From: a virus
Taxonomy: Duplodnaviria; Caudoviricetes
Length of the DNA: 52,767 nt
Strand: one strand, 5' to 3'
IMG/VR virus record: IMGVR_UViG_3300042319_001969
Location: 1 to 52,767 of that record
The first letter of the stretch is position 1; every line of letters starts with the position of its first letter. The translations under genes and the position numbers were made by a program. This document shows, piece by piece, positions 1,768-50,288 of the stretch. The notes under the pieces are model-generated. The model was not told the DNA's origin and did no database searches. It was given only the letters and a program-made list of their open reading frames with translations.

Positions 1768-1768
1768 A

Positions 1769-9470: not shown

Positions 9471-9471
9471 T

Positions 9472-12692: not shown

Positions 12693-12876
12693 ACTACTTC
12701 CTAAAACCATTAAAATAAATATTTATTGGGTTCCAGATGAAGAAGGTAACGTTATATTAGATGAAGATGCTACTTTTGAAGAATATTCTAATAAAATGGC
12801 AGAGTTGGTAGAAAAATATACTGAAATTAATGAAATTGAATTTGAAGATGAAGTAGGAGAGGGTGGAGGATGTTAA
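12667..12876 (+). CDS. Small acidic hypothetical protein
   Basis: ORF fills the gap; TAATG coupling to the next gene. Confidence 0.6.
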   Translation: MQQKKPKNKLLPKTIKINIYWVPDEEGNVILDEDATFEEYSNKMAELVEKYTEINEIEFEDEVGEGGGC

Positions 12877-13916
12877 TGGATATAACTTTATATAACAGTT
12901 ATGGTATTATAGATAAAGGTTCTGAAATTGAAATAATTCCAGTTCCTAAAGACGAATCTGACTGGAAAAAAGACCGTAAAAAAACTATAGGTGGTTCTGA
13001 AGCAGCAGCTATATTAGGACTTAACAAGTACTCCTCACCGCTTAAAATCTACCGAGCTAAAACCGAAGACAACGAACATGCACAAGACATGCTTGGTAGA
13101 TTGCCTAGTGTTAAAAAAGGTAGAGAATTAGAAGGATGGATTTTAGACAATAAAGTTAAACCTTTATTCCCAGAATACAACCTTATTAAGCCAGACCATA
13201 TGTTTAAAAACATTAACTATCCTTGGTTAATGGGTAACTTAGATGGTATTGGTACTTTAAAAGATAAAACTTACAACGCTTTAAAAGATACTATTGGTAT
13301 TGAAATAAAGTTAATTACCGAATACGGTGAAGCAGCATGGAACGGTCCTGATTACGAAGGTATTCCATCTTATTATTATGTTCAAGTTCAAACATATATG
13401 GCAATTACAGGTATAGAAGTATTTTATGTTTGTGCTATGTTTGAATCTAATTGGGAATTAAAAACTTATAAAATTCCTAAAGATTTAGATTTTATTCATA
13501 TTAGACTATTGCCTGAAACTAAAGATTTTTACAATAATCATTTGTTAATGAATATTCCTCCTACTCCTACTCCATCTATAGATTCTGATGAAATTACTAA
13601 TATTTTACCAGACATCGAAAACACTCCTACTGTATCTAGCGAAGAACTAAATAAGATGTTAGAAGACTATAACTCATTAGATGGTGTTATTAGAGCTTCT
13701 GAACTACGTTTAAACATTTTGAAGGATAACATCGTAACTAAATATATCGAAGGCGCTAGACCTACAGAAACATCTAAATCTATTATATCTTACTCAAAAG
13801 TTACACGACCAGCGTTTGATTCTGCTAAATTTAAAGAAGAAAACCCTGATTTGTATCAAAAATACATTAATCCATCTACTTATGTTAAATGGAATATTAA
13901 AAAATCTAAAAAGTAA
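12876..13916 (+). CDS. YqaJ-like (lambda-exonuclease family) recombination nuclease
   Basis: IGGSEAAAILG.NKY, GRELE, GNLDG, EIK, YYYVQVQTYM. Confidence 0.9.
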   Translation: MDITLYNSYGIIDKGSEIEIIPVPKDESDWKKDRKKTIGGSEAAAILGLNKYSSPLKIYRAKTEDNEHAQDMLGRLPSVKKGRELEGWILDNKVKPLFPEYNLIKPDHMFKNINYPWLMGNLDGIGTLKDKTYNALKDTIGIEIKLITEYGEAAWNGPDYEGIPSYYYVQVQTYMAITGIEVFYVCAMFESNWELKTYKIPKDLDFIHIRLLPETKDFYNNHLLMNIPPTPTPSIDSDEITNILPDIENTPTVSSEELNKMLEDYNSLDGVIRASELRLNILKDNIVTKYIEGARPTETSKSIISYSKVTRPAFDSAKFKEENPDLYQKYINPSTYVKWNIKKSKK

Positions 13917-28324: not shown

Positions 28325-29077
28325 TTATGGTTTTATATCGTACCAGAAGTCGCCTGTAACTTGACCTATAGGTTCGTTTTGAGCTACTTCAATCCATAAG
28401 CCGCCTTCTGCTCTATAGTTTATTTCATATACGAATATTTTACCGCTACCATTGTTTTTAAGTTCTGTAATAGTAGCTAACCATAATGCAGCATTAGGCC
28501 TGTCTGGAATAGTAGTTGAGTACTTAGCAGCTTCTGTAGCTGATAAATACAATCTACTACCTTCCATTATACCACTTATACTAGCACTGTCAACAATATT
28601 TGCAAAATTTGCAACATCTACGTTTCCAAATACTAATACTGGAGTAAAAGCATTTTTAATTGACGAATATCGTAAAACTCCAACCATCTTAGATTTAGTC
28701 GGGTCAGACGCTATAGCAGTAGTAAATAGTTTATGACTACCTTGAGCTCCTGCCCAACTTACTGGAGCTCCGGCTGGAAGGTCTAAATTGCTATCGTTTT
28801 TACCAATATCTCCTAATTTATTGTAATAATCAATTTGGTCGCTAAGAGTTTTTAAGTTTTCAATTACAGCAACCATTACTTCTGTTATAGTAAGTCCTTG
28901 GCTAAGACTACGCTTTACTTGTTCAAATAGCTGGTTCCAGTCATTTATAGTAACGCTTTTGCTAGCTAAAGTCTTAAATAAAGGAATATACCAAGTAGGA
29001 AGGTTGTTAAAACCTTCTATATTGTTTTCAAAATAGTTAATGATGTCATCTAATGTTGCATTAACTGGGATTGGCAT
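28325..29077 (-). CDS. Tail-associated protein (fibre adaptor-like)
   Basis: C-terminal EP...GDFWYD motif common in fibre proteins; position. Confidence 0.6.
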   Translation of the reverse strand: MPIPVNATLDDIINYFENNIEGFNNLPTWYIPLFKTLASKSVTINDWNQLFEQVKRSLSQGLTITEVMVAVIENLKTLSDQIDYYNKLGDIGKNDSNLDLPAGAPVSWAGAQGSHKLFTTAIASDPTKSKMVGVLRYSSIKNAFTPVLVFGNVDVANFANIVDSASISGIMEGSRLYLSATEAAKYSTTIPDRPNAALWLATITELKNNGSGKIFVYEINYRAEGGLWIEVAQNEPIGQVTGDFWYDIKP

Positions 29078-34429: not shown

Positions 34430-36181
34430 TTAGTCTTCGATTTTGTCAACTAATACAGTGCGAGTTTCTGTACCTGAACCATCACCTTTAACAACTGTTT
34501 GACCAGTGATTACGACAGGGAGTTCGACGACTTCAGCAGACGCGGTGCCCGCCAAACCTTTAATATAGAATTTAGCGTCACTGTGAAGAACCACTTGGTC
34601 TTCTAAGAAACGCACAAGTTTGTTTGATAATAAAGCATATGCTTTGGTTGGCAAGTCACCAACGATGACTTGGTTTTTACCATTAGCATCAATACGTCCT
34701 GGAACAACAGCTTTGACAAGTTTTGTCAACTTTTGAGCCGTAACTTCGGTAGTCGTACCTTTAACAAGATATTTAATCACGTTAGCAGAACCATTCCAGA
34801 ATAAAGATTGAACGACTTGTTCTGGCCAATAAAAATTACCAGCTGCGCTTACATAACCATAATCGTATTCAGTGAACTCGTTCTTTAAGTCAGGACGGTT
34901 GTGAATCGTAATACGGTATTGTGTAGGAACGGATAAGTAGGCTTGAACAGCGTCTGGGTTAGCAACTTTGAAACCAATAGAGTCAAGTTTCCAACCAATA
35001 GATTGACGTTGGTTTAATGGGTCAGCAACACCAGCAGAGCCTAATGGCTTACTGATAAATTGAGGAGCACCATGACCTTCAACGGAAATTTCGAATAAAG
35101 CTTCTTCGCCTAACACGTAAGAGTAGTGGACATTGAGGACATCAATTGAACCAGTAATCATAGCAAGGAAAGCAGTCTTAGTTAATGTAGCTTCTGCTGG
35201 GAAAGGCTTTTTTAGGACTTGAACAATAATATTGTCAGACCCTGCAACATCATCCCACTTTTTAGCAGCAATAACGTTAGCGGATTCAGCAGTGTAAGCA
35301 ACGCTACCCACTGTACCAGTGAACGTGGTCACGTGATAAAGGAACTTGGTGACGCCATCGCCATTCACGAAAGTGTTATCGGTTTTAATCGTTTTAGCTT
35401 TACGGAATGCGAGGTTGAATAAGTCAACAACAGTGTCATCCATATATGGTTGACCAGTTTGTTGGTATTTCATAAATTCTTGAACGCGCTTGTCAGTAAT
35501 TAAATCAAAGTAGACAGCTGACGAGACTAACGCTAAGAAGTTTTTGCCCATCATAGGACGGACTTTGGCAGCTTCCATCGTCAAGACGATTTTACGGAAT
35601 TCGTCAATAGTTGGCGAGGAGTTTGGGCTAAGATATTTAATGTGAGTAACATCTCCACCAGCTTTTGGCTTGAGGAATCCATCAATAGTGCTCACTTCTT
35701 TTTCAGCGGCATAGAATAATTGGCATTCTGCTAATAGAGCTTGTTGCGCAATTAAGTCTTTTGTTTCAGGGACTTTTAACGAAAGTTGACGTGTGTATTC
35801 AGAAATAAGGGGGTCAACAACTGCCCAATCCACTTTATCAGTGAATTCCATATAGCGACCATATTGTTTGGTTGCTGCTTTAATAGCGACCATGCGTCCT
35901 TGGTCTGACGCTGGTGGAATACCTTCCACTAAAGGTTGTGTGTGAGCAGCAAGCGAAAGCATGCGCTTAAACACAATTTCATTAGAACCATTGTTAGATG
36001 GCATGCTGCGTTTAACAGCTAGTTTAGCGAATTCGAAATCAGATTCAGCAAGTTCGATTGTACGTAGCATAATTTTGCTGTACACCGCTGCTGGCTGCAT
36101 AACGTTTTGCCCTTGAAGTGGGGACGTTGGAGCAGGATTTCGATAAACGCCAGTGTTATTAATCAACTGAATGTCGTTCAT
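34430..36181 (-). CDS. Major capsid protein, N4-gp56 family, with C-terminal extension
   Basis: PLVEGIPP, KQYGRYMEFTD, DPLNQRQSIGWK; SD AGGAGG. Confidence 0.9.
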   Translation of the reverse strand: MNDIQLINNTGVYRNPAPTSPLQGQNVMQPAAVYSKIMLRTIELAESDFEFAKLAVKRSMPSNNGSNEIVFKRMLSLAAHTQPLVEGIPPASDQGRMVAIKAATKQYGRYMEFTDKVDWAVVDPLISEYTRQLSLKVPETKDLIAQQALLAECQLFYAAEKEVSTIDGFLKPKAGGDVTHIKYLSPNSSPTIDEFRKIVLTMEAAKVRPMMGKNFLALVSSAVYFDLITDKRVQEFMKYQQTGQPYMDDTVVDLFNLAFRKAKTIKTDNTFVNGDGVTKFLYHVTTFTGTVGSVAYTAESANVIAAKKWDDVAGSDNIIVQVLKKPFPAEATLTKTAFLAMITGSIDVLNVHYSYVLGEEALFEISVEGHGAPQFISKPLGSAGVADPLNQRQSIGWKLDSIGFKVANPDAVQAYLSVPTQYRITIHNRPDLKNEFTEYDYGYVSAAGNFYWPEQVVQSLFWNGSANVIKYLVKGTTTEVTAQKLTKLVKAVVPGRIDANGKNQVIVGDLPTKAYALLSNKLVRFLEDQVVLHSDAKFYIKGLAGTASAEVVELPVVITGQTVVKGDGSGTETRTVLVDKIED

Positions 36182-36203
36182 TGTTTTCTATAGCCTCCTA
36201 AAG

Positions 36204-36986
36204 CTATTTTTTGTAGTAGTTCGGCATAGTGTTCTTTAGGAACTGCTCAGCGTATTGCTGTGCATATTTGTCAGTATCTTGACTTGTTGTTCCTACATTA
36301 GAACCGCCGTAGATTTGAGACGTCGCTTGTGGTTGAGCTCTTTGAATGCGCAATGCATATTGCTCTGGGTATAATCCTCTAAATACGGCTTCAATATCAT
36401 TCACGTATAGAATATTAATCCCGTTTTCCAAAGCTTTAGTCCCGAAAGTATACAGGTCTCGTTCGGACAAGTTTAACTTGCCTCCGAAAGCTGTCATTTT
36501 TGATTCAAATTGTTCAGAGATTTTACTTTCTTCAATTTGATTGAAGCGTTGCTGTAATTCATTAACCTTAGACATTAGTTGTTGAGCATAGTCTGGTGAA
36601 CCGTTTTGACGGTTACTGTTTAAAGCTGACACAACTTTATCTAAAGGAATTCCACGTCGCATTGCTTCGACAACTAATTGCGTTTGACGTTCGCTATATT
36701 GCGAAGTCGGAGCAAATTGTTGTTGGGGTACCGGTTGTTGTGAACCAGCCGTTTGTCTTGTAGCATATTGCTGCAAGATAGCTTGTACCTGAGCTTCAGT
36801 GTATGTTGGTCCTTGTGTAGGCTGAGCAGCAGCTTGTTGGACCGGAGCTGGTGCTGGTTGTTCCTGCGTAGGTTGAGATGTGGGTTGTGGCACAATGCCA
36901 ATTGACTGCATTTCTTTTTGCTGCAGTAAATTTTGCAATCCACTTTCATCGTCTAACGCTGGAAGCTGAGTGATTTCGTCGTTCAT
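36204..36986 (-). CDS. Capsid scaffolding protein
   Basis: Gln/Pro-rich, helical; between portal and capsid. Confidence 0.7.
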   Translation of the reverse strand: MNDEITQLPALDDESGLQNLLQQKEMQSIGIVPQPTSQPTQEQPAPAPVQQAAAQPTQGPTYTEAQVQAILQQYATRQTAGSQQPVPQQQFAPTSQYSERQTQLVVEAMRRGIPLDKVVSALNSNRQNGSPDYAQQLMSKVNELQQRFNQIEESKISEQFESKMTAFGGKLNLSERDLYTFGTKALENGINILYVNDIEAVFRGLYPEQYALRIQRAQPQATSQIYGGSNVGTTSQDTDKYAQQYAEQFLKNTMPNYYKK

Positions 36987-37006
36987 TAATGAACCTCCTA
37001 TAAATC

Positions 37007-37035
37007 ATTATACAATACTTGACATTTTTTGTCAA
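37007..37035 (-). promoter_or_regulatory. Consensus promoter of the scaffold/capsid operon with a palindrome over the -35
   Basis: TTGACA-N17-TATAAT; TTGACA-N5-TGTCAA inverted repeat at 37019-37035. Confidence 0.85.
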
Positions 37036-37049
37036 CTATTATTTTGATT

Positions 37050-38918
37050 TCATTGTTGTGGCATCTTTTTTGCCGGTAATTGCCCAAGTGTAGACGCTTG
37101 GATTTGAGCAACTACTTCTTGCACCGCTTGTTCTACAGGCATGCCACCTTGAGTCAATGTGCCTACGGCGGTGAGAACTGCTGTATACTCTTCAAGTTTT
37201 AAGTTTTGATATTGAAGAGCCATACGGTCGATAATAGCTTGACGTTGTGATTGAGGTATATTTAACCATTGAATTACTTCTTCTGGTGTAATAATACTTG
37301 GGTATCCTTTTTCTGCAGGAGAGTATTTCATTTCTAATTCCATTAATTTCATTGCAGCTTCTTCGTAACTAGCTGTAGTACGAGGAGCAGCATTTTCTAC
37401 AACGATTTCAATATCTTCTCTGCCAATTAATTCCATAGGGTCAAATCGCATTTTTACACCCATATCATCATGGCTGTTATTTTGTTTAGCAAAGAAATTT
37501 TCTGGAGTTTTTAAATTTGCTAAATAGAATTGTAACATTAATTCTATTTCTTTGCGAATAAATACATCTATGTTTTTAATACGAACGCTGTCTCGCATTG
37601 TAGAACGATTAACAGCTTGTTGAACACCACCAGTAGTTTGAATTGAACCAAAGCTACTTCCTAAATATATTTGGTCGACTCCTGAAACTTCTTGGATACT
37701 ACGAATTAGATATTCTCTAAATTGTAGCAAATCTCTAGAAACTTCTGGACGAGCTTCAGTATATACAACTTGAGTTGGGTTACCATTAACAGTAAACGCT
37801 CTATCTGGATTTTCTTTTTTACGTTGATATTCTGCTACGTTTAATCCTGACGCTGCGTTAATAAACTGTGCAGGGTTTTGATTTTTAATAATTGAAGTTG
37901 CTTGAATAGAATCAATTTCGTTTAAGCTCATTACTAAACTTAACACTTTATAGCATTTAGAAATGCCCCAAAAATTATTTGGGATTTCTTCATCATAAAG
38001 TGGAACAAATGGAATAGTTGAAGGTTGAATGTCTTTAGAAATATCTAAGATGTGACGCCCTGCCATATAAATAATATCCACGCAAGGATATAATCGCATT
38101 TCACCAGTAGTTGGGTCTGGCTTCATTCTCATTAATCTTTTATAAGCAGTAATAAATGTGACAACATTATTACTTCCATTTTTAGCTTCGTCTAAAATAT
38201 AATTGCTGTCAGGTTGTCCAATATTTTGTGAAGAGTATTCAATATTAGCAATTGAATTACTAAATCGAGCAATTTGTTTTAAGAATTGTTTTGTTTTACG
38301 TTCTGCAATATATAAAAATTGAGCTTCATCAATACTTGCAGCGCCTGGGTCTGGAAATAAATTAGATGGGTGAAGTGCTTTAGCTTGAATCTGTGATTTT
38401 TTACTTTGATTAAAATAACCAGTGTAATCAGTAGCATCAATTATATTTTGGTTCCATCCAAATAAAACACCTGCTGTTCCGTGCAAGAACGCATAGTCTC
38501 CAGCTTGTGCATTAATAGAGTCCATACTAGCAGCTTGCCATTTCATTTGCATATAACGGTTAGCTGTGTCTGCAATTTTTTTGCCTTCTAAAGTCATTGG
38601 TTTAAACATGCCAGCATAAGCAGTAGGCATAATGCTTGCTTTAGTTGCTTCTTTAATAACAGTGATTGGATTGTTTGTTGGAGTTTGATAATACGCTGGA
38701 ATTTTTTTATTGTAAATTTTCCAAATGTCAGAATGGTCTGCCGCATCTAAAATTTTAAATACACGAGCTTGTTCAACTTTGTAAGCAATCGCATCTTCGA
38801 ATTCACGAATTAAATCTTCAACCGTGTATTCCGTAATACCATAAGCCTTTAGAATTTCTTCTGAAGTTGTAGTTTGTTGGGAATCAGCAATTTGCTTCTC
38901 GTATTTACTTGTGTCCAT
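37050..38918 (-). CDS. Portal protein (P22/podovirus-like)
   Basis: LFPDPGA, IPFVP, FWGIS, IQEVSGV..IYLG, TTGGV; between TerL and scaffold. Confidence 0.85.
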   Translation of the reverse strand: MDTSKYEKQIADSQQTTTSEEILKAYGITEYTVEDLIREFEDAIAYKVEQARVFKILDAADHSDIWKIYNKKIPAYYQTPTNNPITVIKEATKASIMPTAYAGMFKPMTLEGKKIADTANRYMQMKWQAASMDSINAQAGDYAFLHGTAGVLFGWNQNIIDATDYTGYFNQSKKSQIQAKALHPSNLFPDPGAASIDEAQFLYIAERKTKQFLKQIARFSNSIANIEYSSQNIGQPDSNYILDEAKNGSNNVVTFITAYKRLMRMKPDPTTGEMRLYPCVDIIYMAGRHILDISKDIQPSTIPFVPLYDEEIPNNFWGISKCYKVLSLVMSLNEIDSIQATSIIKNQNPAQFINAASGLNVAEYQRKKENPDRAFTVNGNPTQVVYTEARPEVSRDLLQFREYLIRSIQEVSGVDQIYLGSSFGSIQTTGGVQQAVNRSTMRDSVRIKNIDVFIRKEIELMLQFYLANLKTPENFFAKQNNSHDDMGVKMRFDPMELIGREDIEIVVENAAPRTTASYEEAAMKLMELEMKYSPAEKGYPSIITPEEVIQWLNIPQSQRQAIIDRMALQYQNLKLEEYTAVLTAVGTLTQGGMPVEQAVQEVVAQIQASTLGQLPAKKMPQQ

Positions 38919-38920
38919 AT

Positions 38921-39190
38921 TTATCCTCTGAAATCATTTCCTAGTATATCAGAAAAAATTTCATCTTTGGTAGCAAACGGTTCTTCTCTAACATCTTGCT
39001 TGATATTTTCCATTTTGTCAAGCTCTTCTAATATTTTATCAGATTGACGTAGACTTTGACGTTGTCTTAGTTGAATCTGTTTTTCTTCTTCTTCACTTAC
39101 TGGAATCAAATGCAAAGCTTTTAAAACAACAAGCAATTGCTCGTTTTGTTCTTTTAAAATTTTTAGTATTTCGTTTAATTTTTCTTCCAT
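38921..39190 (-). CDS. Hypothetical protein
   Basis: 89-aa ORF filling the TerL-portal gap. Confidence 0.7.
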   Translation of the reverse strand: MEEKLNEILKILKEQNEQLLVVLKALHLIPVSEEEEKQIQLRQRQSLRQSDKILEELDKMENIKQDVREEPFATKDEIFSDILGNDFRG

Positions 39191-39200
39191 AAGTTATATT

Positions 39201-40901
39201 TTAATTAAATTTATCCCAATTGTCAACTATAAAATCATTTTCTCCATTTTCTTCATCTGTAGATAATGGATTGTATGTTTTAGTTTTGTTGGCAATTTGT
39301 GTCCAAATTTCCGTAAACTCTGAGGGGTCCTTGGGGAAAGGAGGTAACGGAGCCATAGCATATCTTACCGCATCCGGTAAGTGGTTGTTAGAATCCATAG
39401 GCTTTTCGCCTTGGTTCTTTTCGTCCCCTAATCCTCTGGATGGATATTTGTAAGAACGCATCTCTTTATACAAATAATGTAAAGTCTTGAAGAACTTTAC
39501 CTTTCCATACCGAGCATATGATGACAGCTTACTAATAGTTGGAGCCAATGAGTCATGCTCCATGTTTTCTGCTGGCACAATCATTATACCATGTTCATTA
39601 TAGGCATCTATCCATGACTTTCCTGAAACTTGGTCTCTGTTTCTTCCTCTTGGGTCACCTTGACGAGGATATGCCCATAAATAGTCAGGAACTCCAGCTT
39701 CTGCATCTTTTATTCGTTTAATTGCTTCAGTAATGTCTTTATCTTCCAAAGAAATGTAAACTTCCTTGTAAAAGTAAATAACTTGTTTACCTGGGTCTAT
39801 AGCCCCTAAGACATACGCAGTTGGGTCACGTCTTCCGAAGTCTACCCCAGCAATTCGTTGCCAATGTTCTGGAATTACAAACGGGTCGCAGAACCATTTA
39901 TTGAAATCAGGGTAAACTAACCCTTCAGTATATTTAAAAGACCCTTTAAGGTAACGATTAATCCACCACTCTTCTTTATTGGCCGCTAAGTCACGTTCGT
40001 AGTTAGTGGGCAAGTAGTAGTTTGCAGATGTGGCTGCAATATGTGTAGAAACAGCTTGTTCTCTAGCAGTAGGTGGTACTTCGTATCTGTCTTGAACGTT
40101 ACCGTGATAGTATATTTTATCAGAAACCATAAGCCAGTTAGTATTTAACCAACCAACGTCAGGGTTACTAGAGAGCAACATCTTTAATCTGTCTTTGCCT
40201 TTGTAAAAAGCATTCTTATTACGCAAACGAGCAGCAATGTATGCAACGACAGAGTAATCTACTTCGCTAGCTTCCTCTACCCAGATAAGGGTTAAGTTAG
40301 CTGAGCGAATCTTACCTTCTTTGTCTAAGGCTTTAGCTGAAATGCGTGAGCCGTTAATTAAATCTATGTACCAGTTTACTTTATCTTGATTTGATTTGAT
40401 GACTAGCTTAGCTGGAACATTATCTATAATGAATTTCAAGCAGGTATCGCTAACTTGCCCCCAAGTGCTAGCACCAACTAGGGCTGAAGAGTTAGGAATT
40501 TGTAAGATGGTACCGATAAACTCCATGCCTGCTGTATAAGTCTTAGCAGAACCGAATCCACCAGCATATAGTTTCTTCATATGTTGGTCAATATGGAATA
40601 TTTCTTGATGAGGCATAGGCTTATATCGACAAACGTACGAGTTACAAGTAGGGCAGTGCACAAAAAACTCAGCTTGTTTACCACTAAACGAAGTTACTTC
40701 TTCGAATTTGCTATAATTACACCGTGGGCAGGTATCACCTATCTCACAAGTGTAAATTCCTTTAGCAGTTTTGGTAAACGCTCTAGATTTTTCTAGTTCT
40801 ACCACTTCTTTTACAGTCTCCTTGACAGATTGTGTCAAAGAAACTGTAGTAGTGGCTTCAAACTTAGCTAGGGTGTCTAATAGTTTTTTGTTATCTGCCA
40901 T
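39201..40901 (-). CDS. terL: Terminase large subunit with N-terminal zinc ribbon
   Basis: GGFGSAKT, WVEEASE, SSNP, GVDFGRRDP, NHLPDAVRYA; N-terminal CPRC...CPTC. Confidence 0.92.
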   Translation of the reverse strand: MADNKKLLDTLAKFEATTTVSLTQSVKETVKEVVELEKSRAFTKTAKGIYTCEIGDTCPRCNYSKFEEVTSFSGKQAEFFVHCPTCNSYVCRYKPMPHQEIFHIDQHMKKLYAGGFGSAKTYTAGMEFIGTILQIPNSSALVGASTWGQVSDTCLKFIIDNVPAKLVIKSNQDKVNWYIDLINGSRISAKALDKEGKIRSANLTLIWVEEASEVDYSVVAYIAARLRNKNAFYKGKDRLKMLLSSNPDVGWLNTNWLMVSDKIYYHGNVQDRYEVPPTAREQAVSTHIAATSANYYLPTNYERDLAANKEEWWINRYLKGSFKYTEGLVYPDFNKWFCDPFVIPEHWQRIAGVDFGRRDPTAYVLGAIDPGKQVIYFYKEVYISLEDKDITEAIKRIKDAEAGVPDYLWAYPRQGDPRGRNRDQVSGKSWIDAYNEHGIMIVPAENMEHDSLAPTISKLSSYARYGKVKFFKTLHYLYKEMRSYKYPSRGLGDEKNQGEKPMDSNNHLPDAVRYAMAPLPPFPKDPSEFTEIWTQIANKTKTYNPLSTDEENGENDFIVDNWDKFN

Positions 40902-40904
40902 TTA

Positions 40905-41369
40905 TTAGTTTGGTTTACTTGGAGTAATTAAACCAATCTTTTTGTTAATCAACACGTCGACTGATTTTTCTTCTATGCCGGCTTCTAAAAGAATTTCTTT
41001 TGCTAACACCACAGCGGCAATTCGATTAGTTTCGTTATTACGGGCGGTGAGCAGAGTGTCTTCTTTGCCTAAAGCTGCATCAATGGCTTCTTTAGCATTC
41101 TTGTGAGCTTCGGAATCTTCGAATACTTGTTTAGTTGGAAGAATTCTTTTTAGGAATTTACCGAACACACCATTCCAATGGTCATGCACAGGGACTTTAC
41201 CGTTTTTTTCAATCAGAGAAATAGAATACGCTTCTAGCACTCCCATGAAAATTGACGTAAACTCTTCTGGTGTAAACATTGCTCCAATGAATTTAATCTT
41301 AACATTGTCGACATCGTCCGTCTTAAGCGTAACGTGTATACCGCGGCTTTCTGCTTTCTTCTTTGCCAT
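40905..41369 (-). CDS. Hypothetical protein upstream of TerL (terminase small subunit by position only)
   Basis: 154 aa, SD AGGAGG. Confidence 0.6.
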   Translation of the reverse strand: MAKKKAESRGIHVTLKTDDVDNVKIKFIGAMFTPEEFTSIFMGVLEAYSISLIEKNGKVPVHDHWNGVFGKFLKRILPTKQVFEDSEAHKNAKEAIDAALGKEDTLLTARNNETNRIAAVVLAKEILLEAGIEEKSVDVLINKKIGLITPSKPN

Positions 41370-41401
41370 AATTGTTTCCTCCTTTATGGGCTTCTAAATA
41401 T

Positions 41402-41410
41402 ATTATAGCA
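41402..41410 (-). promoter_or_regulatory. Extended -10 promoter for the packaging operon
   Basis: TGCTATAAT upstream of the 41369 SD. Confidence 0.55.
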
Positions 41411-41687
41411 CAATGTTTTGTTTTTTACTAGTACTTTTTAACAAAATGTTTTTTAACCATAAAGCAATGATAAGATTTAATATCCAGAATGGGGTAATTG
41501 GTAACATGATAAACGTCCAAATAGATGCCGCCAGAGTATAGCCGGTGTTATCTTTAAACAAGAATCCGTAGACTAATGGCAGTATCCAGATTAACGAAGT
41601 AATGATATTAGCAATTATCCAGCTTAACCAGCCTTGCCACGTTAATAATAGTTCTTTAAGTTGTCTTTTTAGTTTTTCGTAAACCAT
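41403..41687 (-). CDS. Small membrane protein (2-3 TM)
   Basis: Trp-rich hydrophobic helices, basic termini. Confidence 0.7.
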   Translation of the reverse strand: MVYEKLKRQLKELLLTWQGWLSWIIANIITSLIWILPLVYGFLFKDNTGYTLAASIWTFIMLPITPFWILNLIIALWLKNILLKSTSKKQNIVL

Positions 41688-41733
41688 AATCTTAGGAATG
41701 TTCTACCTCTTTTTATAGGAATAATATGCAGTA

Positions 41734-41812
41734 TGGTGGAGTAGGTGGGAGTTGAACCCACGTTTTAACCTACGTCCAGTTAAGGTTATAGGTTAACTTA
41801 CCCGACTACCCC
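41734..41812 (-). ncRNA. Minimal tmRNA-like tRNA-like-domain RNA (Ala identity, encoded CCA, no mRNA-like domain)
   Basis: Acceptor stem GGGGTAG/CTACTCC-ACCA with G3:U70; T-arm GTGGG-TTCAACT-CCCAC; stemless D-region; 9-bp helix TTAACCTAT/GTAGGTTAA. Confidence 0.8.
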
Positions 41813-41900
41813 TTGATTTGCTAGAGAGCAATAGACGCTAATAAAGGGAGTTTGGGTTTAAACTATGCTTGGTCCTTTAGGCTATGCTCTCTAACTGGAC
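41813..41900 (-). ncRNA. Structured 5' domain/leader of the tRNA-like RNA
   Basis: Long hairpin TAGAGAGCA..TAAAGG/CCTTTA..TGCTCTCTA; 5' GTCCAGTTA complementary to the loop of the tRNA-like domain. Confidence 0.6.
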
Positions 41901-41965
41901 ATAGTTAATCATACCTCACCGCCATTGTCAACTAAAACTTGAAAGCAGTTTCACACATTTAACAA

Positions 41966-41994
41966 TTGACTTGGTTAGTTTATTGGCTTAAACT
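41966..41994 (+). promoter_or_regulatory. Early rightward promoter
   Basis: TTGACT-N17-TAAACT just upstream of AGGAGG at 42001. Confidence 0.6.
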
Positions 41995-42011
41995 TCGTGC
42001 AGGAGGTACAT

Positions 42012-42188
42012 ATGGTAACCATATACACGCTATACGGCATCGACAAGTATGGGCGCACAAAGTTTCACGGCAGATTCGGTAGCCGTCACAGAATGCTTAG
42101 TGCAGTCCGTGGGCTTGGATTAGTTAGCTGGTTCTACGAATCAGAACAAAAACAAGACCAATATGGAGCTTTGACAGTAAACGTCTAA
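42012..42188 (+). CDS. Small early hypothetical protein
   Basis: ATG 42012 after AGGAGG. Confidence 0.7.
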   Translation: MVTIYTLYGIDKYGRTKFHGRFGSRHRMLSAVRGLGLVSWFYESEQKQDQYGALTVNV

Positions 42189-42377
42189 AGTTCCTAGTTT
42201 AATCAAAAAGTGATGAGTTGAGGTCAATCCTATGTATGGCCCTTTAGGACAGGTGTGGGACCCAATTAAGACCCCTAGCCCCTAGTTTGTGAATTATGGT
42301 TTTGTTGTTTAGTGAGTAAACTCAAATTTACTCATAGGTTAATCCGTGACCTATACATACCTTGGAGGTATAAGAAA

Positions 42378-42689
42378 ATGGCTAAAGCAAAAGAAGTCGC
42401 AGTTTCAGTGTTCGAAGATTTCAGTGAAAAAGTTATCGTGCGTGTTGACCCTAGCAAGTTAATCGCGTATGTCCAAGTCGGCATCAATGACTTTGGCGAC
42501 CGCGAAGTAAAAGCTTACAACATTTACGACTTGACGGATGCGCACATCATCATGCACAACCTCAAGAAAGAGTTCACACGCAAAGACTTAACGGTTGTAG
42601 CTAATACTCACATTGGCAAGACACCCGGTTTGAAGTTCTTTACGGCAAAGCAAGTCTTACATATCTCACGCACCGTAGTTTCTAAATAA
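42378..42689 (+). CDS. Early hypothetical protein
   Basis: ATG 42378 after GGAGG; followed by a terminator. Confidence 0.8.
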   Translation: MAKAKEVAVSVFEDFSEKVIVRVDPSKLIAYVQVGINDFGDREVKAYNIYDLTDAHIIMHNLKKEFTRKDLTVVANTHIGKTPGLKFFTAKQVLHISRTVVSK

Positions 42690-46500: not shown

Positions 46501-48276
46501 ATGAATGTGGAATTCAAAGCAATGGTATTAAACGAAGCTGGAGATAGCTATGCTATGGATAGCGATTTTAATTTTACTAAAGATAGTACTAAGGGTATAG
46601 TGTTCTCTTTAAACACAGATTCAAGCGTTGAAGATTTCATTAATTATATTATGAGTATGCTTAATGAAAAAGAAGACACTTACACAGTTGAAATTTTTTC
46701 AGATGTTAATCCTAACTCTTTTGGAAAATTGACTTTTAATAAATCTATGCTTTCTGCCTCATTTGATGTTAAAGCTGCCACAGATGAAAGAGCTTTTGGT
46801 AAATTTATAGCAGAAAATATAGCACAAGCTATTAAAGATATCCCAACCACTAGTATTCTTTCAGGTATTTCAGAACTTATGGAGGCTGCTGCTAAAGGCA
46901 GTTCAAGAACCCCTAGTTCAAAAGACCCAAGCTTAAGCGAAGATGAGCAATTCATAGAAAAAATTAAAGACTTTACTAAAACAGATATTGTAAAGCCAAC
47001 AGAAACTATTGTAGATTATATAGCAGATGATGATTTACTTGATGAACTAAAAGAAATTATTGACTTTCAAAACAATTCAGATAAATACTCTAAGTTAGGT
47101 ATTGAAATACCTAAAGGCGTATTATTCAAAGGTCCTCCAGGTACTGGTAAGACCTATGCTGCTAAATGTATTGCCGGTAGTAGTAATAGTTATTTTATGG
47201 TAACTACTGCTAGTGCCTTACAAGGTCAATATATTGGTAGTGGCGCCGAGAATATTCGTAAAATATTTACAGGCGCTAGAGAGCTAATTAAAAAGACAAA
47301 GAAAGGTGTAATGATATTCATAGATGAGCTTGACTCATTCGGTAGTCGCACAAGCCATTCGGGAAGCGCAAGCGGTGAGGAAGACCGAACCCTTAATCAA
47401 TTGCTTGCCGAGTTATCTGGATTTAATCCAACCGATAAGATAATGGTGTTAGCTGCGACAAACTTTGTAGAGCGTTTAGATGAAGCGCTTTTAAGAAGTG
47501 GCCGTTTAGGTCGCCAAATTACTATTGATTATCCTACAGAAATTCAAAGACGCCATTTAGTAGACTATTATTTTAAGAAATTTAAGTTACACGACACAGG
47601 TACAGATATTATTTCAGACTTAGTTGACGGCTTATCCCCTGCGGATATAAAAGCCGTTTCTAATGAGTCTGCTATATTAGCAGTCCGTAACTCTCGTGAA
47701 GAAATTATGCTTGACGATATTAATGAAGCGATTAACAAAACTATTACTAAGAATGTTAAACGAAAAGACATTAAGAAAGACAAGTATTTAGTTTCAGCAC
47801 ACGAAATGGGACATGTCTTAGCAGAAGCTTTGTATCTAAAGACTTGCCCATTAAAAGTCACAAATGATACTTATGGAGACTCAGGAGGATTTACTCAAAC
47901 AACAAATCACTTAAGTGGCATTACAAAACAAGAAAGGTATTCTGCCGAAGTTAAAATGTTAATGGCAGGCCGTGCCGCAGAGCAAGTGATTTGTGGATAT
48001 ATAACTAACGGAGCAAGTAGTGACCTTCAAAGAGCTAATAAACTTGTAAAAGCCTATTTTCAGGTTTATAACTTTGAGCCCTATGATGTGTCAAAACTTG
48101 ACCAGTTAGTACAAGACAAAATTCATAGTCTTTATACGGAAACCGTAAAAGATTTTGAATTACACAAAGACTTGCTTAAGTCTTTGACAGACGAGTTGAT
48201 GACTAAGTCTACTATTTATCGTTCATTGTTAGCTATTCTATTATCTCCAGTGTTAACTAAAGGAGGAATTTTATGA
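46501..48276 (+). CDS. ftsH: FtsH-like AAA+ zinc metalloprotease (M41) lacking transmembrane anchors
   Basis: GPPGTGKT, pore YIG, IFIDELD, TLNQLL.E, ATN..LDEALLRSGR, HEMGH, MAGRAAE, GASSD; hydrophilic N-terminus. Confidence 0.9.
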   Translation: MNVEFKAMVLNEAGDSYAMDSDFNFTKDSTKGIVFSLNTDSSVEDFINYIMSMLNEKEDTYTVEIFSDVNPNSFGKLTFNKSMLSASFDVKAATDERAFGKFIAENIAQAIKDIPTTSILSGISELMEAAAKGSSRTPSSKDPSLSEDEQFIEKIKDFTKTDIVKPTETIVDYIADDDLLDELKEIIDFQNNSDKYSKLGIEIPKGVLFKGPPGTGKTYAAKCIAGSSNSYFMVTTASALQGQYIGSGAENIRKIFTGARELIKKTKKGVMIFIDELDSFGSRTSHSGSASGEEDRTLNQLLAELSGFNPTDKIMVLAATNFVERLDEALLRSGRLGRQITIDYPTEIQRRHLVDYYFKKFKLHDTGTDIISDLVDGLSPADIKAVSNESAILAVRNSREEIMLDDINEAINKTITKNVKRKDIKKDKYLVSAHEMGHVLAEALYLKTCPLKVTNDTYGDSGGFTQTTNHLSGITKQERYSAEVKMLMAGRAAEQVICGYITNGASSDLQRANKLVKAYFQVYNFEPYDVSKLDQLVQDKIHSLYTETVKDFELHKDLLKSLTDELMTKSTIYRSLLAILLSPVLTKGGIL

Positions 48277-50288
48277 AGTTAACTTTATCAATCCCATATT
48301 CAGACATTAAAGCAAACTTAGTAGATTCTTATTCGCCAGACTTTCCATTGCTAATAGTTAAAGATTTAGACCCAGATGTTATTATACATACAGCTAAAGA
48401 AATTAATAATCCTAATTCATTAATGAACTTTATACCTAAAGTATTAATGACTTTTAAAGCATTAGCAGCAGTTAAAAAACCTTTAGGTTCAATTAACTAT
48501 GCTAAGTATGAAACTGGTGAATATATCACAAATCTTAATTTGTTTAGAACTAAACAAACTTCATTTTTATTTGACCCTTTTACAAAGCTAGGTATTAATC
48601 TTCACAAGTTATTACTTGGTATTGATTCTAAAGAAACTAAACTTTATTTAGATACTGCGCTTATAGCACATTTAAGTAGATTAAGTCAAGAGATTCAAAA
48701 TCAAATGACTTTGTATTTAATTTCATTAATTCATTTGTTTATTAGTCTTAATGAATTACAAATAGATAAAAATTTATTTAATTTATCTAAACTTTCATCT
48801 TCAGAATTAAGAATTAAACATTTGACATGGGCAACTTTGCCTAGTCTTATTAAGACTTTTAATGCCGATGTTAACATTGAATTAGTAGAAACTCAAACTT
48901 CTAAAATTACTTACTTAGAAGTTTTTCAAGACACTTATTCTTCTAATATACCTATCGCAGTTACAGGTCAAGCCCCAAGTAGCTATATGATTATCAAAAG
49001 TCCTAGTAATGAGTACTCTTTATTACTTAAAACCCCAAGTAAAGATTATTTTAATATCAACTTTGATACCTCAGAGATTCAAACTACTTTGAATCTTACT
49101 TATTTAGACTTTGATTCAGACTCTCATCCTATTGGATTTGCGGGCAGTATGCCTAATAACTCAAACCCAGTAGTAATTATTTACAATAAAACTATGGATT
49201 TATCTACATCCCAAAAATCTTTAATTTTAGAATCAGTTTCAGAAATTGAAAATGCTAAAGTTAAAGAAAAAGTAGAATCTTTTTTATCTAAATGCTCAAC
49301 TCTTAGAGAAATTGTAGAAGTTACTAACTTAGAAGATTTCTTTAAAGAGTTAAATAAAGATTATTTTGATACTAGTACAACTAGTCATGTATCTAATGAA
49401 TCTATTAAACTTCAATATACATCAGACGCATATGCCCAACAACTATATGCGCTTAATAAAAAAGTTATTGACAAATTAGGTCCAGTAGACTTACAAGACC
49501 TTTCTAATATTGTTCCAAGCGTTATTAAAGGTGAAACTTACAGTGCTATTTTTGTAGGTGAATCCGGTACCGGTAAATCTACCACTGCTAAGCAAATCTT
49601 TTACCAAGCAGGAATTCCTTTTGAAATTATTAACGCCAGTATTAATATCGAAGAATCAGATTTTATTGGCACAATGGTAGCTAATAAAAATCGTAAATCA
49701 GAACTAGACCCAATGTTTGTTTGGAAAGATGGTATCTTAACCAGAGCAATTAGAAATGGTTATGGAACTATTATTGAAGAACTTAACTTTGGTAGAGCAG
49801 GCGTTTTAGGTAAATTAAATTCATTGTTAGACGATTCTCGTCAAATTGAATTAGGCGATGGAACTATTCTTCAAGCACATCCTAACTTTAGATTGTTTGC
49901 TACAGGCAACATTGGCGAAGAAGGTACTCAGCGTTTAAATCGTGCTTTAATTAACCGTTTTCAACATGCTAAAAAGTTTAAACATTTAAACAAACAAGAA
50001 ACTATTAATTTAATAGCTGTTAAAACAAAGTATAAAGACTTAGATAAGCTAGAAAAGATTTATGTAGTGTACGACGCAGTTCGCAAGTACGCTAAAGAAA
50101 ATCAATTAAAACTAAGTATTTCTATTCGTCAGCTTATAAACATATTTATGGCACCTAAAGTCTATAAGAATGCGCACGACGCAGTTATAAACTTTATGAT
50201 TAATCAAGCATTTTTAGAAGAAACAGAACATCAAGAACACTTTGTAGAAACAGTACTATCCGTATTTGATTTAAAATTTAAACTATAA
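48273..50288 (+). CDS. MoxR/CbbQ/CobS-type AAA+ ATPase with a long unknown N-terminal domain
   Basis: GESGTGKS, WKDGILTRAIRNG, IEELN, HPNFRLFATGN, LNRALINRF. Confidence 0.88.
   Translation: MKLTLSIPYSDIKANLVDSYSPDFPLLIVKDLDPDVIIHTAKEINNPNSLMNFIPKVLMTFKALAAVKKPLGSINYAKYETGEYITNLNLFRTKQTSFLFDPFTKLGINLHKLLLGIDSKETKLYLDTALIAHLSRLSQEIQNQMTLYLISLIHLFISLNELQIDKNLFNLSKLSSSELRIKHLTWATLPSLIKTFNADVNIELVETQTSKITYLEVFQDTYSSNIPIAVTGQAPSSYMIIKSPSNEYSLLLKTPSKDYFNINFDTSEIQTTLNLTYLDFDSDSHPIGFAGSMPNNSNPVVIIYNKTMDLSTSQKSLILESVSEIENAKVKEKVESFLSKCSTLREIVEVTNLEDFFKELNKDYFDTSTTSHVSNESIKLQYTSDAYAQQLYALNKKVIDKLGPVDLQDLSNIVPSVIKGETYSAIFVGESGTGKSTTAKQIFYQAGIPFEIINASINIEESDFIGTMVANKNRKSELDPMFVWKDGILTRAIRNGYGTIIEELNFGRAGVLGKLNSLLDDSRQIELGDGTILQAHPNFRLFATGNIGEEGTQRLNRALINRFQHAKKFKHLNKQETINLIAVKTKYKDLDKLEKIYVVYDAVRKYAKENQLKLSISIRQLINIFMAPKVYKNAHDAVINFMINQAFLEETEHQEHFVETVLSVFDLKFKL

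Follow-up and report, generated by a model that had tools for sequence, protein, structure and literature searches.

A 79-nt stretch on the minus strand of an uncultured phage genome raises the question of whether it encodes a tRNA, a tmRNA or only a tmRNA's tRNA-like domain (TLD), and of what such an RNA would do in an infected cell. Nearly all bacteria possess trans-translation, a drug target for which, to our knowledge, hardly any natural inhibitors or re-routers are on record. The stretch lies in the IMG/VR record IMGVR_UViG_3300042319_001969 (Caudoviricetes), of which positions 1 to 52,767 were analysed and are called the window below. A preliminary description of this DNA had read the locus as a phage-encoded mini-tmRNA reduced to its TLD and had suggested three functions for it, namely a decoy for SmpB and EF-Tu, a tagless rescue RNA or a decoy for tRNA nucleases.

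Architecture of the RNA gene

The sequence given in that description was recovered exactly on the minus strand of 41734–41812, and all of the parts claimed for it are present: the acceptor with G3:U70, the discriminator A, CCA, the T-arm, a stemless D-region with GG, a 3-nt linker and a 9-bp helix (Table 1). The observation of a TLD-type RNA gene at this position was confirmed. Read on the minus strand, CUACUCC pairs with GGGGUAG over 7 bp, and A73 and ACCA are encoded. In the published accounts, the acceptor G3:U70, the discriminator A and CCA define tmRNA (PMC3968760, PMC3985003), with G3:U70 and A73 forming its alanine identity (PMC3968760). The tmRNA features found here are these determinants on a 7-bp acceptor, a T-arm of 5 bp with a 7-nt UUCRANU loop, a stemless D-loop and helix 2. 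The D-region, at 9 nt, is shorter than the Rfam tmRNA consensus and lacks the UUCG(AC) motif.

The two halves of the TLD occur in standard (unpermuted) order, with a short hairpin between them and a total length within 65–90 nt. This H2-like hairpin occupies the place of the tmRNA pseudoknots and tag message. As the helix strands are separated by nothing but its 14-nt loop, the gene has no resume codon, tag frame or stop codon, and no sequence is left to form pseudoknots, which bears out the earlier claim that the loop stands in for the pseudoknot and mRNA domain.

Table 1. Coordinates of the element, its parts and the neighbouring features of the window
Feature	Position	Strand	Remarks
Mini-tmRNA (TLD-only) gene	41734..41812	-	79 nt, encoded CCA included; kept in contigs L006–L012
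Acceptor 5' strand GGGGUAG, nt 1–7	41806..41812	-	Carries G3 of G3:U70; 7/7 pairs, subfamily-invariant
D-loop analogue without stem, UCGGGUAAG, nt 8–16	41797..41805	-	GGG inside
H2-like hairpin, nt 17–48	41765..41796	-	9-bp helix UUAACCUAU/GUAGGUUAA and 14-nt loop; covariation, fold
AAC linker, nt 49–51	41762..41764	-	5' of T-stem; 'AC' is the Rfam tmRNA consensus
T-arm GUGGG-UUCAACU-CCCAC, nt 52–68	41745..41761	-	Pair 2 of T-stem covaries family-wide
Acceptor 3' strand CUACUCC, discriminator A and CCA, nt 69–79	41734..41744	-	Carries U70
Divergent intergenic region	41813..41996	.	Upstream of element; TTGACA at 41931-41926 (-), no good -10 partner
94-aa small membrane-protein ORF	41403..41687	-	46 nt downstream of element
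Same-strand structural genes downstream	34430..41369	-	154-aa ORF, TerL, 89-aa ORF, portal, 260-aa ORF, major head protein
TerL	39201-40901	-	
Portal	37050-38918	-	
Major head protein (major capsid)	34430-36181	-	

Covariance models and gene callers

The Rfam tmRNA model (RF00023) aligned to the element end to end with 38.2 bits, which does not reach its gathering cut-off of 47; 326 of the 374 model positions were deleted, and the deletion comprised the tmRNA body only. The Rfam tRNA model (RF00005) passed its cut-off of 29 with 46.6 bits (E 7.3e-07, whole window searched), an alignment that was achieved only with a 13-nt "anticodon loop". ARAGORN returned 0 genes (tRNA or tmRNA) at the element with default settings and nothing there in its mitochondrial and tmRNA modes. 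Relaxed settings gave either 'tRNA-Arg with a 6-nt intron' or 'tRNA-Ser', which were forced and contradictory and were counted as no call. No other tRNA or tmRNA gene was found in the window by ARAGORN, the Rfam tRNA model or the subfamily model. The preliminary description had expected a partial tmRNA match with no tRNA call; the silence of default ARAGORN and the end-to-end tmRNA alignment agree with this, whereas the absence of a tRNA call proved tool-dependent, because the Rfam tRNA model passes its cut-off.

These scores bear on whether the element is an aberrant or degenerate tRNA, such as a tRNA-Ala-derived pseudogene or a form whose anticodon loop is expanded, or else a leftover ssrA attachment fragment. 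The Rfam tRNA score and the relaxed ARAGORN calls would fit a degenerate tRNA, and a weak match to the permuted tmRNA model (23.6 bits, E 0.008, 601-nt search) would fit a degenerate tRNA or an attachment fragment, but the 13-nt anticodon loop that is required and the silence of default ARAGORN count against a tRNA. An attachment fragment would have the 3' part of ssrA only. An ssrA attP remnant was rejected, since the 5' acceptor strand is present, no integrase or resolvase (PF00589, PF00239) was matched in the window, and a scan of GTDB representative genomes did not find the exact 3' 28-mer of the element. A permuted two-piece tmRNA (RF04321) was likewise rejected, its score being below 47 and the gene order standard. 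The RF04321 match, which spans the T-arm to a downstream GAGGUAG, was taken as a remnant; GAGGUAG recurs after the element of contig L008 and was not seen in the short flank of L012.

Folding and covariation

With the acceptor and T-arm enforced, the TLD fold has an energy of −27.8 kcal/mol, which equals the unconstrained minimum. Within the subfamily, five of the first eight pairs of the 9-bp helix, and also the ninth, changed on both sides, and 96.2% of cells were paired compared with 43–50% when the partners were slid. The covariation score of this helix (0.290) was reached by 0 of 500 shuffles, whereas 121 of 500 reached that of the cloverleaf pairs (0.129). Taken with the energy of the cloverleaf-like alternative, −22.3 kcal/mol, covariation spoke against a cloverleaf tRNA, and that reading was rejected. 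A 4-bp 'D-stem' (GGGU/ACCU) can also be drawn and is used by the Rfam tRNA model; it is incompatible with the 9-bp helix, shows one-sided changes only and no covariation, and is broken in L006.

In the central helix, the 39 distinct rows of the family had 93.2% of cells paired compared with 51–58% when slid, and all eight of eight pairs showed two-sided changes; fitting alignment A4 to the model biases its pair counts towards the structure. The D-region is unpaired, over a stretch of 9–13 nt, in 20 of 31 family sequences, and the loop of the central hairpin varies among relatives. The search patterns fixed GGGG, GG, ACG, the T-loop and UCCACCA, and conservation in those columns is thus by construction; evidence was drawn from the free positions only, namely acceptor pairs 5–7, T-stem pair 2, the central helix and, in a scan that left it free, 3:70.

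The tRNA and tmRNA model scores, the recurrence in other contigs and the helix covariation indicate that the element is not a chance occurrence. The preliminary description had looked to related phages for conservation of the stems, and the central helix covaries in both the subfamily and the family. Compensatory changes and conservation over many contigs argue against a pseudogene, and a degenerate tRNA or attachment fragment is hardly credible. The earlier distinction between a TLD-only, tmRNA-like RNA and a decoding tRNA was upheld by the tmRNA alignment lacking only the body, the covarying helix and the absence of a default ARAGORN call, as well as by the finding of a known TLD-only ssrA with the subfamily model and by related minis that pass the tmRNA cut-off (both below). 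The gene very probably specifies a TLD-only tmRNA-type RNA, consisting of the tRNA-like domain and a stub of helix 2.

Distribution of related elements

An exact 28-mer match was found in six other viral contigs, and a pattern search added a seventh. The seven IMG/VR contigs L006–L012 have elements with near-identical ends and a covarying central helix. Looser patterns extended the set to about 47 viral contigs with elements of 72–89 nt built alike (minis). Among 30 minis scored, 18 were above the Rfam tmRNA cut-off, with a maximum of 76 bits at 82 nt, and many other minis retain the UUCG(AC) motif in the D-region. The scan with 3:70 unconstrained yielded 38 new loci, seven of them without an acceptor partner within 58–110 nt. 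G3:U70 was present in 10/10 new TLD-type loci, and both G3:C70 matches were cloverleaf tRNAs; the remaining loci were mostly ssrA 3' parts or ambiguous (6/7 acceptor pairs).

Several candidates were rejected as minis. L029 belongs to a full tmRNA of 366 nt (146 bits), of which it is the 3' part, and L036 is identical to L029 across the matched stretch; L195, L197 and L202 read as cloverleaf tRNAs, and L205 is a true tRNA-Ala. On genome contigs, the loose pattern matched at least 120 stretches, mostly the last ~95 nt of ordinary ssrA genes, and the true minis by eye among the matches listed were L052, L085, L118, L124, L159 and perhaps L059.

A blastn search with 801 nt around the element gave no match among 50,697 phage records. 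TerL places Paenibacillus larvae phages as the best cultured relatives (37% identity), too distant for naming a host. The closest viral relatives by TerL (L002–L005) have no element in the stretches or whole records, of which that of the closest, L002 (83% TerL identity), ends inside the homologue of the 94-aa ORF and is hence uninformative. A complete related phage with a 60% identical TerL lacks the element, which is thus dispensable.

Genomic context

The preliminary description had placed the element at the head of the late arm. This holds in the window, where the 94-aa ORF, the 154-aa ORF, TerL, portal and major capsid genes follow on the same strand, but this position is not conserved in relatives. 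A homologue of the 94-aa ORF is physically linked to the element there, in reversed order. Pfam and PHROGs had no match for the small ORFs beside the element, the 94-aa and 154-aa ones among them. No minus-strand promoter was listed in a scan of 41813–41996, and a scan of 41300–42400 found no terminator. In L008, L012 and L211, nt 5–7 of the element are the stop codon of an upstream membrane-protein ORF, so that maturation by RNase P would cut off the stop codon and leave the upstream message non-stop; no such overlap exists in the window.

This setting raises the alternative of a tRNA-like processing signal, in which the fold would be mainly a site where RNase P and 3' nucleases cut the long transcript, forming either the late mRNA's 5' end or the upstream mRNA's 3' end, and the excised RNA would be functionless. 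RNase P requires just the acceptor/T-arm stack. The position before the first late ORF (46 nt, same strand, no terminator), the overlap, in relatives, with the end of an ORF, the 16-bp leader–trailer stalk (z −6.18) that encloses the element in the L007 group and the true tRNAs directly beside it in L032, L037 and L040 are consistent with such a role. It would leave unexplained the invariant G3:U70, A73 and CCA, as well as the tmRNA-type D-loop, the xAC linker and the tmRNA scores of up to 76 bits, and we regard it as very improbable.

No SmpB gene was found in the window or in any of 31 other records with a match, eight of them at least 90% complete. The SmpB partner of a TLD-only RNA, if any, must therefore be that of the host.

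Comparison with known systems

A 'TLD only' ssrA of mycobacteriophage DS6A is recorded on the tmRNA Website (tmID 11587; Hudson, Lau & Williams 2014, PMC4131195). It was located here at 28478–28560 (83 nt, Rfam tmRNA 43.2 bits), and model R1, whose training set was the window subfamily alone, found it with 31 bits (E 1.6e-5; calibration was short and E-values are rough). Both RNAs are phage-encoded and unpermuted, with a G3:U70 acceptor, a stemless D-region, a single hairpin for the tmRNA body and a T-arm, and both align end to end with the Rfam tmRNA model below its cut-off (43.2 compared with 38.2 bits here). DS6A is a high-GC actinophage with a tyrosine integrase, and its RNA has a GGUCGAC-type D-region and ends in CUA; the window, in which no integrase was matched, belongs to a phage of ~33% GC from an unrelated lineage, and its 79-nt RNA has the 9-nt UCGGGUAAG and an encoded CCA. 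Mao et al. 2009, as reported in PMC4131195 and PMC11915505, found strong inhibition of E. coli tmRNA by a DS6A-like TLD, chargeable or not, 'perhaps by titrating SmpB'. The idea of a TLD-only tmRNA is not new, as both the DS6A ssrA and tmRNA inhibition by such a molecule are already in print. Judged by its sequence, the window RNA is a further case of the DS6A type of TLD-only phage tmRNA, within a wider phage family.

Organellar tmRNAs without a CDS are described from jakobid mitochondria and, at ~65 bp, from Mallomonadaceae plastids; the mitochondrial ones are found together with SmpB and are believed to assist when mRNAs are incomplete (PMC11915505). They too consist of the tRNA-like part with no tag frame and are thought to be active with SmpB. 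Theirs is the cooperative SmpB of the same cell, and the mitochondrial forms are usually permuted, whereas the window RNA is viral and would meet the SmpB of a host. Engineered TLD fragments are also similar, with 5' ~25 and 3' ~34 nt closed by a loop (crystals of Bessho 2007 and Gutmann 2003; Shimizu & Ueda 2006). The loop-joined 25 + 34 nt fragment crystallised with SmpB (PMC3985003) is about the size of the window RNA, and a TLD-only RNA underwent peptidyl transfer in vitro (Shimizu & Ueda 2006, cited in PMC3895274). Those fragments are laboratory constructs from host tmRNAs, whereas the window has a gene that occurs naturally and whose D-region and helix have diverged in their own way.

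Other phages carry full-length trans-translation RNAs, namely Bxz1-type mycobacteriophages, Bacillus phage G and, in two pieces, Melnitz-like marine phages. These keep the tag frame and pseudoknots, both missing from the window RNA, and are found by ARAGORN or Rfam. With tRNA-Ala the element shares G3:U70, A73, CCA, the T-arm and a score above the Rfam tRNA cut-off; unlike tRNA-Ala, it lacks both a 5-bp/7-nt anticodon arm and a conserved D-stem.

Proposed function

As an explanation of the locus as a whole, we lean towards a TLD-reduced tmRNA that competes with the tmRNA of the host. There is an even chance that it functions as an alanine-chargeable mimic, which would capture host SmpB and stalled ribosomes and let phage products escape ssrA tagging. 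The RNA would be transcribed with the structural operon or just ahead of it, cut at its 5' end by RNase P and trimmed at its 3' end to the encoded CCA by host nucleases; tmRNA maturation itself is described as involving RNase P and RNases III/E/T/PH (PMC3968760). Host AlaRS would charge it with alanine through G3:U70 and A73, and host SmpB would bind to the elbow and D-loop, with EF-Tu also bound. In tmRNA, SmpB contacts the TLD elbow and keeps the stemless D-loop extended (PMC3968760); because the D-region here is short and lacks UUCG(AC), SmpB binding is less certain than for the minis that carry the motif.

Without a resume codon or tag frame, the ssrA degron could not be added. In competing for SmpB, and probably stalled ribosomes as well, against the tmRNA of the host, the RNA would lower ssrA tagging during infection, with less proteolysis of phage products and less SmpB–tmRNA-dependent decay of phage messages as the consequence. 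According to the summary in PMC4131195, inhibition of tmRNA by a TLD molecule is independent of alanylation. That inhibition has no need of alanylation while G3:U70, A73 and CCA are strictly kept hints at more than a passive sponge.

The alternative of a productive, tag-free rescue places the gain in the rescue and not in inhibition of host tmRNA. An alanyl mini-TLD with SmpB and EF-Tu would take over the nascent chain from ribosomes stalled on phage non-stop messages, and the chain, longer by one alanine, would come free through either a release factor or drop-off with peptidyl-tRNA hydrolase; ribosomes would be recycled and phage proteins spared. We know of no release step for a peptidyl-TLD that lacks a resume and a stop codon, which counts against it, as does the lack of an ORF overlap in the window itself. 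The strictly kept charging determinants (G3:U70 in 10/10 loci of the 3:70-free scan, ACCA encoded) and the upstream messages made non-stop by RNase P maturation in L008, L012 and L211 point towards it, as do the in vitro acceptance of peptide by TLD-only RNA (PMC3895274) and the assistance with incomplete mRNAs ascribed to CDS-less mitochondrial tmRNAs and SmpB (PMC11915505). The DS6A-like molecule is reported as an inhibitor, not a rescuer (PMC4131195, PMC11915505), and tag-free rescue is hard to tell from SmpB competition by sequence alone; we consider it unlikely. A further idea, tentative and rather doubtful, is that mini-TLDs act as charged impostors that use host AlaRS, SmpB and EF-Tu, offer a tag-free exit with one added alanine and disarm ssrA-directed proteolysis. 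In L008, L012 and L211, RNase P maturation would then create the element's own non-stop substrate, and membrane-protein synthesis would be set by whichever rescue RNA wins.

A counter-defence decoy would absorb a defence component, for example the SPB domains of CoCoNuT type IV restriction or a tRNA-directed nuclease. The SmpB-like OB folds of CoCoNuT are predicted to bind tmRNA (PMC11090510), and the element is accessory and shifts its genomic context, as counter-defence genes often do. The CoCoNuT–tmRNA link is itself a prediction, nothing ties the element to a defence system in the window, and conservation of the AlaRS identity set is left unexplained. There is also no anticodon loop, the usual nuclease target, and with none to cut, the tRNA-nuclease decoy is the weakest of the three functions first suggested. 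A counter-defence role is improbable overall.

Implications for phages and trans-translation

The tmRNA databases are described as holding one phage TLD-only example, DS6A (PMC4131195, PMC11915505). Of the 97,179 sequences in the 2025 tmRNA database, by its published account, only nine are CDS-less in the standard form, and bacteriophages, drawn from RefSeq viruses, contribute 79 in all; the pipeline drops candidates overlapped by a tRNA match of >42 bits (PMC11915505), and elements like that of the window would thus be discarded. Mini-TLDs appear to form a widespread phage family, of which no description was found in the open-access literature searched. The window and the ~47 other uncultured viral contigs, with their covarying helices and invariant alanine pair, suggest that phages have recurrently adopted interference with ribosome rescue as a strategy. 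They also provide a natural panel of sequences for asking what a message-less tmRNA does on the ribosome, a question that is the same for jakobid mitochondria.

Structure of the mini-tmRNA element

The window, an entire IMG/VR virus record of 52,767 bp (99% complete by CheckV, linear ends, G+C about 33%), carries the 79-nt element at 41734-41812 on the minus strand, and the sequence read there in the preliminary description was confirmed letter for letter. Its nt 17-48 (32 nt) take the place of the pseudoknots and tag message that occupy approximately 300 nt in tmRNA.

Parts of the element and coordinates of associated genes (nt, position within the element; other positions are those of the window or of the contig named)
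Feature	Position	Sequence or content	Remark
Acceptor stem	nt 1-7 / nt 69-75	GGGGUAG / CUACUCC	7 bp, G3:U70
D-region	nt 8-16	UCGGGUAAG	
Central helix	nt 17-25 / nt 40-48	UUAACCUAU / GUAGGUUAA	9 bp, last = U·G
Loop of central hairpin	nt 26-39		14 nt
Linker before T-arm	nt 49-51	AAC	
T-arm	nt 52-68	GUGGG-UUCAACU-CCCAC	
3' end	nt 76-79	ACCA	
Same-strand genes 3' of element		94-aa membrane ORF, 154-aa ORF, TerL, 89-aa ORF, portal, 260-aa ORF, major head protein	in this order; first is 46 nt away
94-aa membrane ORF	41403-41687 (-)		
Tail genes	as far as 13994		beyond major head protein
Plus-strand genes on other side	from 41997	include FtsH-like AAA+/M41 protease, MoxR-like ATPase, VWA protein	
FtsH-like	46501-48276 (+)	AAA + Peptidase_M41	
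MoxR-like	48273-50288 (+)	AAA_5 ATPase	
VWA/CobT-like	50298-52643 (+)		
Plus-strand block	75-13916	SNF2 helicase, primase-helicase, PolA, YqaJ	
83-aa ORF / element, contig L008	1236-1487 (+) / 1481-1559		
83-aa ORF / element, contig L012	964-1215 (-) / 892-970		
83-aa ORF / element, contig L211	5345-5596 (-) / 5273-5351		

ARAGORN at default settings returned 0 tRNA and 0 tmRNA genes for the whole window; calls on the element itself were forced by relaxed thresholds only and contradicted one another. At curated Rfam thresholds the single match in the whole window was the tRNA model RF00005 (46.6 bits versus a cut-off of 29, E 7.3e-07), in an alignment that draws a GGGU/ACCU 'D-stem' and requires a 13-nt 'anticodon loop'. 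In E-value mode, the ends of the element align to the ends of the tmRNA model RF00023 (1-374) with 326 model positions deleted; the score, 38.2 bits, falls short of the 47-bit cut-off. A partial tmRNA match with no tRNA call had been named as support for this reading; the absence of a default ARAGORN call and the end-to-end RF00023 alignment with its body deleted agree with this, but the RF00005 match passes its cut-off. Taken together, these results therefore describe an element with a tRNA-shaped acceptor/T end that is tmRNA-like in detail and is not a decoding tRNA.

Because AACCU is present twice, the 9-bp helix and a cloverleaf-like fold are mutually exclusive. With acceptor and T-arm enforced, the tRNA-like domain (TLD) fold is as stable as the unconstrained minimum, at -27.8 kcal/mol. 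The exact 3' 28-mer of the element is present in six other viral contigs and a pattern search adds a seventh, giving a subfamily alignment of eight elements (five distinct sequences) in which the first 16 nt are identical throughout and the last 31 nt vary at one T-loop position only. The central helix carries compensatory variants (UUAACC/GGUUAA, ACAAUC/GAUUGU and ACAUAU/AUAUGU), with two-sided changes in five of the first eight pairs and in the ninth. The TLD structure was paired in 96.2% of cells, compared with 43-50% when partners were slid, and its covariation score of 0.290 was reached by 0/500 shuffles. The cloverleaf was rejected, with a score of 0.129 reached by 121/500 shuffles and a poorer energy of -22.3 kcal/mol. 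It is this comparison among relatives that decides for the TLD fold. The earlier interpretation, a TLD-type structure that is not a tRNA and lacks a message, is thus supported by energy, subfamily covariation and the RF00023 alignment.

It was also observed that window 41700-41761 (-) weakly matches the permuted-tmRNA model RF04321 (23.6 bits). GAGGUAG, which nearly repeats the 5' acceptor strand, lies 24 nt past the T-arm, acceptor 3' strand and CCA; the motif also occurs 3' of the L008 element, and none was seen in the short L012 flank.

A wider family of TLD-only elements

A loose IMG/VR pattern, with no constraint on acceptor pairs 5-7, on one T-stem pair or on the sequence separating D-region and T-arm, matched 39 stretches, 37 of them elements of 72-89 nt (minis). 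L029 and L036 were rejected as the end of a full-length tmRNA, L036 being identical over the match. All seven acceptor pairs form in 27/31 distinct sequences (window included) at the start we derived; at the start of the model alignment, by our own reading, L016 and L043 also have 7/7 pairs. L033 has 6/7. The inner region folded alone gave a single hairpin in 28/31 sequences, and in 20/31 the hairpin is preceded by 9-13 unpaired nt and followed by exactly 3 (GAC, UAC or AAC).

A covariance model built from the window subfamily alone (R1) found 48 matches in 51 sources. Among the 39 distinct rows, in an alignment fitted to the model and with many columns fixed beforehand by the search pattern, 93.2% of cells were paired versus 51-58% when slid, 0/500 shuffles reached the score, and two-sided changes occurred in all eight central-helix pairs, acceptor pairs 4-7 and the second T-stem pair. 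Since the first patterns forced G3:U70, the scan was repeated with 3:70 free, yielding 77 stretches, 38 of them new. G3:U70 was present in all ten new TLD-type loci (L170, L171, L174, L175, L185, L189, L196, L200, L203 and L204); the two G3:C70 matches, L197 and L202, are cloverleaf tRNAs.

The Rfam tmRNA model gave one match in each of 31 family records, 19 above the cut-off; one of the 19 is a full-length tmRNA, so 18/30 minis pass, the highest at 76 bits for 82 nt. The Rfam consensus motifs UUCGAC ... GGAC are retained in many minis, and intermediates such as GGUAAGAC in L021 link them to the GGGUAAG of the window. A metagenome scan added 15 stretches with minis and one true tRNA-Ala.

ARAGORN labels the identical 80-nt elements of L022, L023, L035 and L046 and those of L041 and L042 as tRNA-Ala(tgc), tRNA-Thr and tRNA-Met, the 'anticodon' being the triplet at the hairpin tip; viral databases probably list such mini-TLDs as tRNAs. 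Among the matches listed, minis also occur in bacterial assemblies: L052 (71 nt, 153-kb contig) and L085 (69 nt, 708-kb contig), both from Patescibacteria MAGs, L118 (80 nt, 3.7-kb Opitutia MAG contig), L124 and L159. The two on long Patescibacteria contigs may belong to prophages or may be a reduced tmRNA of the cells themselves. Outside the subfamily, L118 matches the window model best (67 bits); a second tRNA-like match lies 5 nt from it. Of the ordinary ssrA 3' ends among the matches listed (genome-contig loci within L047-L166; L064, L086 and L101 are examples), roughly one in four holds an internal GGGGGCG/GGGGGUG, approximately 96 nt from the end and fully complementary to the 3' acceptor strand, with a chance estimate of ~5% given the pattern. 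These segments may offer an alternative pairing, or may be an artefact caused by G-rich pseudoknots.

Genomic context and the linked membrane-protein gene

The element lies within a divergent intergenic region. No integrase/resolvase, SmpB (the tmRNA partner protein) or second tRNA-like gene was found in the window, nor a terminator-like site in 41300-42400, nor a convincing minus-strand promoter upstream of the element, where the TTGACA at 41931-41926 lacks a good -10 partner. SmpB was likewise found in 0/31 other family records, eight of them at least 90% complete. The FtsH-like, MoxR-like and VWA genes stand in a row approximately 5 kb from the element; FtsH is one protease that degrades ssrA-tagged proteins.

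The position of the element varies among relatives. In L008, L012 and L211 it closes the replication block, preceded by YqaJ and a homologue (83 aa) of the 94-aa ORF; in L006, L009, L010 and L011 homologues of PolA and AAA_24 lie upstream of it; in L007 and L010 two small ORFs precede it and a very long ORF faces it from the opposite strand; and in L031, L032, L037 and L040 it adjoins true tRNAs. The element is accessory: it is missing from, and so dispensable in, a complete relative of 53,430 bp whose TerL is 60% identical.

The 83-aa membrane ORF is 60-63% identical to its window counterpart, and it overlaps the mini-tmRNA by 7 nt, with nt 5-7 of the element forming its TAG stop. Cutting by RNase P at G1 would remove this stop and leave a non-stop message. 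The overlap parallels that of Carsonella smpB/ssrA noted in PMC4131195. In the window the order is reversed relative to L008 (element, 46 nt, 94-aa ORF; 41403-41733). Immediately 5' of the element (window 41813-41826), 'caa atc aag ggg tag' retains the last codons of an L008-type ORF behind an in-frame stop, and ~45 nt 3' of the element are common to both, which suggests a rearranged or once-tandem ORF-element cassette.

In the branch of L007 (636-760), to which L006, L009, L010, L011, L206, L208, L212, L213, L215, L216 and L218-L220 also belong, the element is flanked by leader and trailer sequences that pair into a stalk, CUAACUAAACU... / ...AGUUUAGUUAG (in the L007 fold 16 bp, -45.8 kcal/mol, z -6.18). 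The predicted stalk looks like an RNase III/E processing stalk, or may also serve as a terminator at a convergent gene junction.

Precedents and proposed function

'Mycobacterium phage DS6A (TLD only)' is listed by Hudson, Lau & Williams (PMC4131195), who summarise Mao et al. 2009 as reporting that a TLD molecule of the DS6A type, whether chargeable or not, is a strong inhibitor of tmRNA in E. coli and perhaps titrates SmpB; the 2025 tmRNA database paper (PMC11915505) repeats this. The latter also describes organellar CDS-less tmRNAs of ~65 bp (mitochondria; plastids of Mallomonadaceae), counts 9/97,179 sequences as 'standard, no CDS' and 79 bacteriophage sequences from RefSeq viruses, and uses a pipeline that discards candidates overlapped by a tRNA match >42 bits. 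We placed the DS6A element at JN698994 28478-28560 (83 nt, 43.2 bits end to end), where R1 matches at 31 bits. It has the same build as the window element but ends in CUA rather than CCA. With DS6A and Mao et al. 2009 as precedents, the element is less novel than initially assumed. Searches of open-access articles found no description of a broader phage TLD-only family; the window element is one of a sizeable, diverse family in uncultured phages. The window member is distinguished by its diverged D-region, encoded CCA and linked small membrane-protein gene.

tmRNA is matured by RNase P and RNases III/E/T/PH, is an AlaRS substrate through G3:U70 and A73, and is bound by SmpB at the TLD elbow and extended D-loop (PMC3968760). 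The SmpB complex needs no more than a 25 + 34-nt TLD fragment (PMC3985003), and peptidyl transfer to a TLD-only RNA occurs in vitro (Shimizu & Ueda 2006, cited in PMC3895274).

The phage gene has a conserved fold and tmRNA ancestry and carries no message, and no phage SmpB was found. Most likely, the RNA would be cut out of the late transcript, become charged, associate with SmpB and EF-Tu of the host, and then compete with host tmRNA such that stalled phage translation products escape ssrA tagging. Against this function stand the D-region of the window subfamily, the most reduced, with a score below the Rfam tmRNA cut-off; the relative that dispenses with the element; and the host comparison, in which the best cultured TerL relative is 37% identical and the exact 3' 28-mer occurs in none of the GTDB representatives scanned.

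If the proposed competition occurs, the RNA may act as an SmpB sponge or as a charged impostor to which the peptide is passed, giving a tag-free exit, versions hard to tell apart by sequence. Inhibition by a DS6A-like TLD molecule is reported to be independent of charging (PMC4131195), yet the charging set is retained in every TLD-type element, and we therefore lean, with low confidence, towards ribosome entry as part of mini-TLD function.
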